Shown: positions 2,416 through 2,916 of the stretch, piece after piece
Layout: each line of letters opens with the position of its first letter
How positions within the stretch are numbered: position 1 is the stretch's first letter
Virus record (IMG/VR): IMGVR_UViG_3300025127_000012
Strand: one strand, 5' to 3'
DNA: 64,000 nt
Source of the DNA: a virus
Translations under genes and position numbers: made by a program
Notes under the pieces: model-generated
Databases searched by the model: none
What the model saw: only the letters and a program-made list of their open reading frames with translations
What the model was told of the DNA's origin: nothing

Positions 2416-2454
2416 TTGATTTTTAGTAATAGGATGTTTTTAAGATCCGTTCCT

Positions 2455-2646
2455 TCAATCTTTTGCGTCCTTACAATACACTCCTTGTACCTCACCAAAC
2501 TCATAGTAAAGATCAATAATTTCTTGTCTATCTTTATCACTAAGATCTGGATAGACCTTAGCACGATCTACAAGTTCATTGATGTCTCCACATGTAACGC
2601 TAACTGCACTGGCAGATGCTAATAATAAGGCAAGCATATGTATCAT
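2455..2646 (-). CDS. Small putative secreted two-Cys protein (63 aa), nested in aptamer 2
   Basis: ORF track; hydrophobic N-terminus with ASA cleavage-like site; TC...C. Confidence 0.75.
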   Translation of the reverse strand: MIHMLALLLASASAVSVTCGDINELVDRAKVYPDLSDKDRQEIIDLYYEFGEVQGVYCKDAKD

Positions 2647-2670
2647 AGGATGAACGTACCGTTCCGAGAT

Positions 2671-2877
2671 TTACTTGCGTCCTATCTGTAAAGGTTCGCA
2701 ATTTCTATCTTCAACTTTGGTAAAGAAGTAATCAATAAGATACTCCTTAGCATCACGATTAAGGTTACTATCTGTTAGAACCTCAATCCTGTTGGTGTTC
2801 CACTCTTCACATGTCATCTGCCAGTGGGCAGGGTAATGTTCTGAGAGGAGCGTCGCTGATAGTGCGATACCAATCAT
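2671..2877 (-). CDS. Small putative secreted two-Cys protein (68 aa), nested in aptamer 1
   Basis: ORF track; hydrophobic N-terminus; TC...C; aligns ungapped with 2455-2646. Confidence 0.75.
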   Translation of the reverse strand: MIGIALSATLLSEHYPAHWQMTCEEWNTNRIEVLTDSNLNRDAKEYLIDYFFTKVEDRNCEPLQIGRK

Positions 2878-2916
2878 AAGATGAACTTATGTTACACATA
2901 AGATGAACGTAATGTT

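Follow-up and report, generated by a model that had tools for sequence, protein, structure and literature searches.

The minus strand of a T4-like ocean cyanophage contains, from 2910 to 2447, both halves of two glutamine-riboswitch cores, laid out twice as CGUUCA ... GGACGCAA ... GGAACGG, with a 68-codon and a 63-codon gene interrupting the two cores. Positions refer to the window, the whole 64,000-nucleotide stretch of DNA that was analysed. That these are glutamine riboswitch cores, and that their hairpins enclose real genes, we consider very probable. Combined with a shared fold of the two cores and a competition between folding and translation, this forms the explanation that we favour overall, a blend of parts to which we assign a probability of about 0.6.

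The element and its relatives

The features of the locus are as follows.

2917..2946, minus strand: sigma-70-type promoter-like site (TTCGCA, 18 nt, TG-n-TATAAT; 10/12 matches, extended -10)
2904..2909, minus strand: CGUUCA, first core-helix 5' strand, at the predicted mRNA 5' terminus; matches the Rfam consensus
2886..2903, minus strand: lineage-specific insert; 12-nt direct repeat GUUCAUCUUAUG at 2908-2897 and 2886-2875
2876..2881, minus strand: UCUUAU, 5' strand of the ORF1 closing helix; includes A and U of the ORF1 start (ATG 2877-2875)
2671..2877, minus strand: ORF1, 68 codons plus stop, inside the first hairpin loop (PHROG 6471, T4-GC 429 family)
2680..2685, minus strand: AUAGGA, 3' strand of the ORF1 closing helix; 6 pairs with UCUUAU 2881-2876, one of them G-U
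2672..2679, minus strand: CGCAAGUA, first-core linking strand and AGUA loop-E half; includes CGCAAG 2679-2674
2667..2671, minus strand: X, AAUCU, first-core linker; pairs with X' and overlaps the ORF1 stop codon
2659..2665, minus strand: GGAACGG, core-helix 3' strand; local hairpin present in the minimum-energy fold
2651..2656, minus strand: CGUUCA of the second (putatively inner) core; sequence motif
2647..2650, minus strand: UCCU, 5' strand of the ORF2 closing helix; the ORF2 ATG (2646-2644) adjoins directly
2455..2646, minus strand: ORF2, 63 codons plus stop, inside the second hairpin loop (PHROG 504, T4-GC 430 family)
2468..2471, minus strand: AGGA, 3' strand of the ORF2 closing helix; family-wide covariation
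2462..2467, minus strand: CGCAAA, second-core linking strand; sequence motif
2457..2461, minus strand: X', AGAUU; pairs with X across ORF2 and overlaps the ORF2 stop codon
2447..2456, minus strand: GAAG (second loop-E half) and GAACGG (core-helix 3' strand; GGAACGG at 2453-2447); would pair with CGUUC 2909-2905 in a nested fold
2442..2446, minus strand: AUCUU, could alternatively pair locally with AAGAU (2462-2458), giving a glutamine-II-type P2 hairpin around GGAACGG
2293..2415, minus strand: DUF4278 (IF17-like) gene, 40 aa, two YRG motifs; Pfam match
2013..2290, minus strand: two small ORFs after the DUF4278 gene in the same transcription unit, 31-aa hydrophobic (2290-2195) and 59-aa (2192-2013, PHROG 6192)
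1973..1994, minus strand: intrinsic-terminator-like hairpin, then a T-run; ends the unit before talC

The unit is a mini-operon of ~940 nt, with its promoter near 2946-2917 and its terminator near 1994-1973. The -10 box sits within a palindrome (TGTTAT ... ATAACA), and the position of the promoter places the predicted transcript start at the aptamer, at ~2910, the A preceding CGUUCA. The promoter layout in most of 116 related loci is CTTGACT, ~17 nt, a TATAAT-like box in a covarying palindrome, ~7 nt and CGTTCA. Hints of NtcA-type boxes were also seen in the promoters of relatives. At the other end of the sensor, the DUF4278 gene matched Pfam PF14105 with 29.1 bits against a cut-off of 25.3. 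A downstream gene with at least two YRG/YKG motifs was found in 111/112 related loci, and the two-YRG peptide gene begins 31-64 nt after the last GGAACGG in 111/112. A DUF4278 (IF17-like) gene is the usual target of glutamine riboswitches. The window lineage has no AGGAG Shine-Dalgarno sequence before this gene, in contrast to relatives.

The composite 3' half (GGACGCAA, 4-14 nt, GGAACGG) occurs in two copies in the 64-kb window, both at this locus, against a chance expectation of 0.00 (100 shuffles). The split-core arrangement, which lies far above chance expectation, is kept in P-SSM3, P-SSM4, P-RSM4 and P-HM1 and lies in three distinct genome neighbourhoods; a motif scan found it in at least 120 viral contigs. 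We gathered 126 related phage loci, among the matches listed, by an exact junction pattern, so that conservation of the junction in these 126 loci is ascertainment. The outer half-motifs, though no part of the search pattern, were present in 123/126 and 117/126 loci, and CGUUCA was invariant across all related loci. The exact junction pattern was found in 1/401 sampled picocyanobacterial genomes, and that copy is a phage-type sequence. Among the genomes searched, the doublet with the exact junction looks phage-borne on these matches, and an exact pattern would miss divergent host doublets.

Scanned with Rfam, whether at the gathering thresholds or with E allowed up to 10, the window returned no glutamine family; the only matches, an aspC-motif (24 bits, E 0.29) and a viral pseudoknot (E 6.4), were taken as noise. 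The window lies below the gathering thresholds of both RF01704 (33 bits) and RF01739 (35 bits), and the missing RF01704 match is expected because of the 190-220 nt insertion. Hairpin span is bimodal among the 126 loci, with a compact mode (12-32 nt) and a long one (138-224 nt), and all four loop combinations occur (SL 55, LL 29, SS 21, LS 11). The compact loci are natural loop-deleted versions of the ORF-bearing cores, and they pass Rfam with 35-44 bits for RF01739 and 34-36 bits for RF01704. Related loci include 21 compact doublets and one triplet. A genome-contig scan for compact aptamers gave mostly chance matches outside cyanobacteria and was kept solely for canonical examples.

Element by element, the RF01704 PK strands CGUUC(A) (5') and GGAACGG (3') are both present twice and identical to the consensus. 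The hairpin after CGUUCA, followed by CGCA and in RF01704 closed by ~5 pairs, is present with 6 and 4 pairs in the window and with loops of 138-224 nt in the family, while CGCAAGUA matches CGGAAGUA in RF01739 and CGCA in RF01704. A possible counterpart of the RF01704 P2 hairpin around GGAACGG is, in the first core, the pairing of X with X', which encloses GGAACGG plus the whole second core. In the second core it would be the local AAGAU/AUCUU stem, found in the window and not in most relatives; AUCUU is weak or absent in other lineages and differs by one base from close relatives. The RF01739 three-way-junction elements are correctly ordered when the outer core is taken as 2909 to 2448, with the pairing of X and X' as P3. 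As for nomenclature, the CGUUCA 5' strand is P1 in the glnA type and PK in the glutamine-II type, and the hairpin called P2 in the glnA scheme is P1 in the glutamine-II scheme. By sequence, the window cores are homologous to bona fide glutamine aptamers and are predicted to bind glutamine. The first-pass annotation had placed a glutamine double riboswitch 5' of a DUF4278 gene in a cyanophage; every one of its motifs and coordinates was present in the window sequence, and the placement is supported by the Rfam-positive compact homologues together with the Pfam match.

Genes inside the hairpins

The nested ORFs are real protein-coding genes. An ORF was found in all 126 long loops, with its ATG 3-7 nt after CGTTCA in 124/126 and its stop codon usually inside the core, and ORF1 is annotated as a CDS in P-SSM3, P-SSM4, P-RSM4 and P-HM1. 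Codon-position entropies of the two nested-gene families were 0.90/0.44/1.24 and 0.78/0.53/1.15. The other two reading frames were open in 0/120 nested-ORF units, and the protein family has invariant residues (H14, W19, C23, E32, C60). That each hairpin contains an entire protein-coding gene, as the first reading of the locus had it, is borne out by these results. The codon statistics, the closed alternative frames and the conserved protein sequence led us to reject spurious ORFs.

The products are small two-cysteine proteins of 68 and 63 aa, and the same subfamilies occur in either loop position. A Pfam search of the nested proteins gave no match, and their PHROG families carry no functional annotation. 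A word-based homology search of the nested protein returned only 3 near-identical proteins, and an Atlas search only viral hypothetical clusters. An AlphaFold2 model of the nested protein (pLDDT 80.7) contains two confident helices, 23-34 and 41-52; compared with the PDB, it gave no match with E < 1.

As first described, each ATG adjoins or overlaps the 5' strand of its closing helix, without a Shine-Dalgarno sequence, and each stop with the last codons is core sequence. ORF1 starts with ATG at 2877 and ends in GGA CGC AAG TAA (TAA 2673-2671); ORF2 ends in AAG GAC GCA AAA GAT TGA (TGA 2457-2455), in a different frame. The reading of GGACGCAA thus changes from GGA CGC AA. in ORF1 to ..G GAC GCA AA. 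in ORF2; with two frames in use, GGACGCAA is conserved as RNA. The original layout of the ORF1 start stood in one part, the ATG abutting the 5' P2 strand. The complete CGUUCA, which had been placed 4 nt upstream of it, is actually 26 nt upstream, because of the lineage-specific 12-nt repeat. This repeat yields a mini-hairpin (CUUAUG-UGUAA-CAUAAG), a second, C-less copy of CGTTCA, (A)GTTCA, at 2887-2882, and two occurrences of the closing strand UCUUAU, at 2903-2898 and 2881-2876. The insert is common to all close relatives (L209-L216), whereas other lineages are without it. In the window the local mini-hairpin could compete with the long-range ORF1 helix.

The peripheral hairpins of the window span ~220 nt (first core) and ~190 nt (second), and their closing helices are short, with 6 pairs around ORF1 (one G-U) and 4 pairs around ORF2. 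We compared 95 unique ORF-bearing units with shuffled controls. Position 4 of the closing helix was paired in 80/95 against 45 after shuffling (CG 43, UA 17, AU 13, UG 6, GC 1), and position 5 in 80/95 against 63; pairing at these levels was reached by 0/500 shuffles. Covariation of the closing helix is as good across an ORF as in compact hairpins, and the minimum-energy fold retains the helix in 106/120 units, compared with 58% when interiors were shuffled. In the window, this fold pairs 2649-2630 with 2469-2495. These results indicate that the long-range helices are under selection. The idea that the P2 of each core closes around a whole gene is upheld by this covariation across cyanophage homologues.

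Pairing between the two cores

AAUCU (2671-2667), the linker of the first core, is complementary to and pairs with AGAUU (2461-2457), that of the second. This linker helix was paired in 82.9% of cases in compact loci, with 5/8 pairs covarying, and in 87.9% across ORF2. Close relatives, whose ORF1 protein is 97% identical to that of the window, carry AAUCG and CGAUU, a compensatory G-C to U-A double change with respect to the window. In addition, the two loop-E halves are split, AGUA being in the first 3' half of every locus and GAAG or AAAG solely in the second. Of the initial description as tandem aptamers, the two cores were retained and their side-by-side independence was not, given paired linkers with compensatory changes and split loop-E halves. 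The two cores are not independent, and by sequence they fit a glnA-type outer core containing an inner core.

Because the linkers pair, the most likely fold is an outer core enclosing a permuted inner core. The outer, glnA-type core would pair the 5' end with 2452-2448 and combine the AGUA and GAAG loop-E halves, and the permuted inner core would pair 2665-2659 with 2656-2651. The unit would then be one integrated sensor rather than two separate ones. A shared helix plus nested-core fold is, in our judgment, probable. Since the core helix strands are invariant, covariation cannot tell which CGUUC pairs with which GAACG, and GGAACGG 2665-2659 could pair with either CGUUC 2909-2905 (side by side) or CGUUC 2656-2652 (inner core, loop G-UA); the nested-core fold fits the linker helix and the split loop-E halves, on which it rests. 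As a counterpoint, single compact cores pass Rfam as stand-alone aptamers.

Two other pairings of the same strands were weighed. If each CGUUC paired with the GAACG beyond its own ORF, the element would be an ordinary pseudo-cooperative tandem with long loops, as described for tandem glutamine riboswitches (PMC9481103). Such a layout would agree with the lone compact cores that exceed the Rfam thresholds (L018, L045, L032 and L009 for RF01739; L071 and L052 for RF01704) and with the covariation of each closing helix inside its own unit. Against it stand the complementary linkers with their compensatory changes and the restriction of each loop-E half to one 3' half; moreover, in the compact doublets L062 and L071 an RF01739 alignment spans the two cores from end to end, at 40 bits, and the adjacent GAACG-GNN-CGUUC will make a local hairpin. 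We regard two independent aptamers as unlikely, and the side-by-side and nested pairings could be alternative conformers. At the other extreme, the first 3' half and the second 5' half might form one circularly permuted core, with the outer halves as leftovers. GAACG-GUA-CGUUC is indeed a perfect local hairpin that forms in the minimum-energy fold, and AUAGGA and UCCUAU are complementary over 6 pairs in the window. Across 26 unique double-ORF loci, however, this cross helix is reduced to its invariant 3 pairs, with the second 5' strand and the first 3' strand paired at position 4 in 3/26, below chance, and the outer halves were kept in nearly all loci without being sought. A junction-only aptamer was rejected on this covariation and is scarcely credible.

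Two further alternatives concern what the genes and halves do. Tolerant loops may have been settled by small genes using the promoter, so that the riboswitch controls DUF4278 alone, with sensing and translation of the nested genes uncoupled. The binding site has the hairpin at its periphery (PMC6698751), loops are gained and lost freely (SS, SL, LS, LL) with the same subfamilies in either position, and compact phage genomes could account for the overlaps. This reading, which we hold to be rather improbable, is opposed by the fixed position of the ATG in 124/126 units and of the stop inside the core in most, so that a ribosome on such an ORF would be unable to coexist with the fold. Furthermore, no Shine-Dalgarno sequence or spacer has evolved, and native ORF interiors favour closure above shuffled ones. 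Alternatively, the ORF-bearing cores may no longer bind glutamine and may be kept as RNase E sites, for translational coupling of the small genes or for protein binding. Consistent with relics or repurposed halves, the window is unrecognised by Rfam and its long-range helices have 4-6 pairs. Yet every ORF-bearing unit retains all pocket nucleotides, the closing and linker helices covary at the level of compact Rfam-positive copies, and the half-motifs are conserved in two reading frames, whereas relics would decay. We find loss of binding very unlikely.

A proposed switch and its relation to known RNAs

The mRNA begins with a predicted double-core glutamine riboswitch, and each core has the conserved elements of the glutamine pocket, in which CGUUC pairs with GAACG and CGCA is the linking strand. 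Base pairing in the folded sensor would cover the 10-11 nt upstream of each nested AUG together with its first base or bases, the more so with glutamine bound. With the start regions paired and no Shine-Dalgarno sequence, initiation at the nested genes would be blocked. Conversely, a ribosome reading a nested gene to its stop, inside the core, would have to unfold the sensor. Translation can begin co-transcriptionally, when the 3' half is still ~200 nt from being made, and occlusion would therefore at best restrict later rounds. Host glutamine riboswitches turn DUF4278 genes on with glutamine (Klahn 2018, PMC6212724), and by analogy glutamine should raise DUF4278 expression here. The direction of DUF4278 regulation is borrowed from these host homologues, and the window lineage has lost the Shine-Dalgarno sequence of its relatives. 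Low glutamine, or the first round of co-transcriptional translation, would yield the nested peptides, and high glutamine would yield DUF4278.

A contest between folding and translation, with glutamine deciding between the nested genes and DUF4278, is a reasonable inference. Reciprocal, nitrogen-dependent logic of this kind is put forward tentatively, by analogy. A fuller version, which is more speculative still, would treat the four distant half-motifs as one glutamine-sensing fold acting as a two-way, translation-gated switch. The bound fold would hide the nested starts and turn on the IF17-like gene, ribosomes on the nested genes would unfold and reset the sensor, and the phage would pick its set of small proteins by host nitrogen status. 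In the glutamine-II structure, the PK helix contains every conserved nucleotide, with the hairpin lying at the periphery; the crystallised RNA forms a strand-swapped dimer, and an aptamer supplied in two pieces comes together on glutamine (PMC6698751). The strand-swapped dimer and the two-piece form make long loops and interlocked cores physically plausible.

The element shares features with both glutamine classes. With glutamine-I (glnA, RF01739; the Synechocystis gifB (IF17) leader, PMC6212724) it has in common P1 CGUUC/GAACG, a hairpin right after CGUUCA, the linking strand CG(G/C)AAGUA, AGUA/GAAG loop-E halves flanking a third helix and a downstream DUF4278 gene. It differs in that the P2 loop of the phage element (~220 nt) is a gene, the P3 'loop' holds the whole second core and second gene, the window element scores nothing with the model and the element sits in a phage, not a cell. 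With glutamine-II (Downstream-peptide, RF01704; marine Synechococcus and Prochlorococcus; PMC2864571, PMC6698751), the class carried by the hosts of these phages, it shares CGUUCA, a hairpin, CGCA, GGAACGG and an association with short DUF4278 peptides. By contrast, the canonical glutamine-II aptamer is a single core with a loop of a few nt and no ORF, and its P2 encloses GGAACGG alone. In tandem glutamine riboswitches, too, two and rarely three cores follow one another ahead of a single gene (Sherlock et al. 2022, PMC9481103). Only gaps < 300 nt without an ORF qualified for that survey, so that ORF-bearing forms were excluded by design; it treated aptamers as independent and did not describe an inter-aptamer helix (PMC9481103). 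The window falls outside its definition of a tandem, having ORFs within both aptamers and a helix shared between them.

Group I and II introns also carry ORFs in peripheral loops and build a conserved core from distant segments, and in them translation interferes with folding. The window RNA, however, is a predicted ligand sensor rather than a ribozyme or mobile element, with no sign of splicing or mobility, and its nested genes are not endonucleases or maturases. Tandem glutamine riboswitches are thus already known, and for the gene-in-hairpin variant we found no published account, though long insertions may have been mentioned in earlier work.

These observations bear on how such RNAs are found and understood. 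A survey found just two glutamine aptamers in cyanophages (PMC5473149), and one motif scan gave at least 120 loci, indicating that phage riboswitches are more numerous than covariance-model scans and published surveys have counted. Riboswitch aptamers are usually seen as compact non-coding leaders; here, conserved long-range helices enclose whole genes in assembling a predicted ligand pocket, which the genes' own start and stop codons overlap. The inter-aptamer helix suggests that the known compact doublets, too, are single integrated sensors. If the fold works as inferred, it would provide a direct, testable competition between ribosome and metabolite sensor on one RNA, and a riboswitch acting in opposite directions on genes that share a transcript. 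For marine ecology, the element points to a nitrogen-sensing module brought by abundant cyanophages into Prochlorococcus and Synechococcus.

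Layout of the cassette and its transcription unit

All elements that the first-pass annotation had listed were found where it had placed them on the minus strand, reading from 2910 down. They are given below with the flanking signals.

Elements of the cassette, as read from the sequence
2917 (end), minus: promoter-like site, TTCGCA, 18 nt, TG-n-TATAAT
2909-2904, minus: CGTTCA (core 1, 5' side)
2887-2882, minus: second copy of CGTTCA without C, created by a 12-nt repeat
2877-2671, minus: ORF1, 68 codons
2685-2659, minus: ATAGGA-CGCAAGTAA-ATCTC-GGAACGG (core 1, 3' side)
2656-2647, minus: TA, then CGTTCA-TCCT (core 2, 5' side)
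2646-2455, minus: ORF2, 63 codons
2471-2447, minus: AGGA-CGCAAAAGATTGAAGGAACGG (core 2, 3' side)
2290-2195, minus: ORF of a 31-aa hydrophobic micro-protein, within the unit
2192-2013, minus: 59-aa ORF, PHROG 6192, within the unit
1994-1973, minus: terminator-like hairpin

The 64 kb contain two copies of the 3' half-motif, and none of 100 shuffles contains one. The downstream 40-aa gene scores 29.1 bits for Pfam DUF4278, above the cut-off of 25.3. The window is from a T4-like cyanophage, with nrdB upstream and talC downstream. From the promoter-like site, transcription is predicted to start at about 2910, the base preceding CGUUCA, and this layout recurs in most related loci. The promoter-like and terminator-like sites enclose the sensor, ORF1, ORF2, the DUF4278 gene and a further pair of small ORFs, which thus make up the unit.

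The −10 box lies inside a palindrome (2916-2933, minus strand) whose arms covary: TGTTAT/ATAACA in the window, and GAGTC/GACTC or GGTCT/AGACC elsewhere (30 nt upstream of CGTTCA in related loci L009-L128). A perfect GTA-N8-TAC (NtcA-type) box, ending 3-5 nt before CGTTCA, makes up the palindrome in some phages, and about 50 of 116 loci carry a second such box ~46-59 nt upstream. These boxes resemble the NtcA site of the MED4 IF17-like gene, which overlaps the transcript start (PMC6212724). A 12-nt direct repeat, two copies of GTTCATCTTATG at 2875-2908 (minus strand), folds into a mini-hairpin that separates CGUUCA from the ORF1 start and is a possible competitor of the long-range closing helix. 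The repeat is common to all close relatives (L209-L216, at 660-700), in some of which the upstream out-of-frame ATG is ATA. At 2416-2446 (minus strand), the ACUUUAGGAG Shine-Dalgarno region found ahead of the DUF4278 gene in most of the related loci is absent from the window lineage, which has ACUAAAAAUCAA before the DUF4278 ATG.

Riboswitch cores with coding loops

At no threshold did Rfam report a glutamine family in the window, because the first hairpin of each core spans 190-220 nt instead of a few. The window nevertheless holds every conserved core position of the RF01704 (glutamine-II) and RF01739 (glutamine-I) consensus lines, drawn from cellular and phage examples. We consider the decisive evidence for riboswitch identity to be comparative. 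Viral contigs were scanned with a pattern that fixed the junction motif but no outer half-motif, helix, ORF or downstream gene, which gave at least 120 loci; the comparison set was the 126 loci among the matches listed, window and isolates included. In this set, the distance from CGTTCA to CGCA was bimodal (12-32 or 138-224 nt), independently in the first and in the second core. Compact (short) and ORF-bearing (long) hairpins were combined as short/long in 55, long/long in 29, short/short in 21 and long/short in 11, plus one triplet. This triplet (L093, 6480-6830) has a compact core, an ORF-bearing core encoding a 67-aa protein of the ORF1 family, and another compact core.

Compact copies exceed the Rfam gathering thresholds (RF01739, 35-44 bits; RF01704, 34-36 bits), and some adjoin an ORF-bearing core (L018, L032, L045, L093). 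The loop deletion proposed by the first-pass annotation has therefore already been performed by nature, and its product matches the glutamine models. The same three-gene cassette follows pstS, nrdB or purM in P-SSM3, P-SSM4, P-RSM4 and P-HM1, indicating a self-contained module. Other known cyanophage RNA motifs lie near the cassette in related contigs (L064, 586-780; L011, L019, L045), namely manA RNA (188.7 bits) and PhotoRC-II (55-80 bits). The exact phage-type junction was found in one of 401 sampled picocyanobacterial genomes, a Synechococcus MAG (L208; G004 contig 1, 190947-190978); this copy may stem from phage DNA in the host bin or from transfer of the cassette.

We next consider the closing helices, using 95 unique ORF-bearing units anchored on CGTTCA and CGCA and 500 shuffles. 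Three pairs of each helix hardly vary (U-A, C-G, C-G), and two covary. At position 4, 80/95 units are paired against 45 when shuffled (CG 43, UA 17, AU 13, UG 6, GC 1), and at position 5, 80/95 against 63, levels reached by none of the shuffles. Compact hairpins pair to a like extent (66/71 and 56/71). Minimum-energy folds of isolated units kept the helix in 106 of 120 cases, compared with 58% for shuffled interiors. The closing helix thus covaries across an entire ORF at the level of a compact hairpin, and the long-range helices are under selection. The rival helix, between the 5' strand of core 2 and the 3' strand of core 1, was rejected, as position 4 is paired in only 3/26. The structure first proposed for the window is supported and extended.

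The loops themselves are protein-coding, as had been suggested. Among the matches listed, an ORF is present in 126/126 long loops, with its ATG 3-7 nt past CGTTCA in 124/126. The stop mostly falls within the core, as CGCAAG-TAA in core 1 and 10 or 13 nt past CGCA in core 2. Codon-position entropies of the two families are 0.90/0.44/1.24 and 0.78/0.53/1.15, and both alternative frames are open in 0/120. The products (49-69 aa) have a hydrophobic N-terminus and two cysteines ~35-40 residues apart; H14, W19, C23, E32, L47, K54 and C60 are invariant in the ORF1 family. Sequence and fold searches found no known relatives or fold matches for them. Either core can house the same protein subfamily. 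Since GGACGCAA reads Gly-Arg-Lys in ORF1 and (Lys)-Asp-Ala-Lys in ORF2, its conservation reflects RNA rather than protein constraint.

A helix joining the two cores

The CGCA-GGAACG linker of core 1 is complementary to that of core 2. Observed pairs include AGUCG/CGACU, AGUCA/UGACU, AUUCG/CGAAU and, in the window, AAUCU/AGAUU, as well as 8-mers such as AGCCGACA/UGCCGACU. Aligned with MAFFT, 31 loci whose second core is compact show 82.9% pairing of this helix, both sides changing in 5/8 pairs; across ORF2 (42 loci) the figure is 87.9%. Contigs whose ORF1 protein is 97% identical to that of the window carry AAUCG/CGAUU, which, compared with the window, is a clean compensatory double change at sites ~200 nt apart. 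Base 2443, C in close relatives and T in the window, changes along with this pair; with T, AAGAU and AUCUU form a local stem of 5 pairs that encloses the last GGAACGG. In the 8-pair version, consistent C-A or A-C mismatches (alignment A1, columns 20/78 and 23/75) suggest a conserved non-canonical feature.

The first 3' half alone contains AGUA and the second alone contains GAAG or AAAG, with the inter-core helix between them, as in the loop-E motif of glnA-class RNAs. In compact doublets, Infernal aligned RF01739 end to end across both cores. The simplest fold would therefore have the third helix of an outer glnA-type core (2909-2905 with 2452-2448) close around a permuted inner core (2665-2659 with 2656-2651). 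The two cores could instead pair side by side, and as the core strands are invariant, they give no covariation that would argue against this arrangement; the two pairings may even be alternative conformers. Glutamine-II crystallized as a strand-swapped dimer, its two-piece form assembles on glutamine, and its conserved nucleotides all lie within the PK helix (PMC6698751), making long loops and interlocking physically plausible.

Glutamine-I and glutamine-II aptamers, their DUF4278 link, and doublets and triplets were already known (PMC2864571, PMC6212724, PMC9481103). One survey reported only two cyanophage glutamine aptamers (PMC5473149), and another demanded absence of an intervening ORF (PMC9481103). 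In the full-text literature searched, whose coverage excludes Ames and Breaker 2011, we found no description of a gene inside an aptamer hairpin or of a helix joining two glutamine cores.

Proposed regulation

In the folded state, pairing would take up every nucleotide between the 5' end and each nested AUG, including the first base(s) of that AUG. As the nested ORFs lack a Shine-Dalgarno sequence, their initiation would need an open sensor. A ribosome terminating at either nested stop would cover the linker helix and the GGAACGG strand, and translation would thereby open the sensor. Glutamine raises DUF4278/IF17 expression via host glutamine riboswitches (PMC6212724). Start occlusion, ribosome opening and host-type glutamine activation combined predict a reciprocal output. 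Several features are caveats to this prediction: ribosomes of the first round can start while the 3' halves have yet to be transcribed, and in this lineage the 12-nt repeat, with its potentially competing mini-hairpin, sets the complete CGUUCA 26 nt apart from the ORF1 AUG. In addition, the window's second closing helix has only 4 pairs, and its DUF4278 gene has lost the AGGAG of its relatives. The comparisons establish the homology, the selection acting on the fold, the coding nature of the loops and DUF4278 as the target. The regulatory reading is a plausible proposal.
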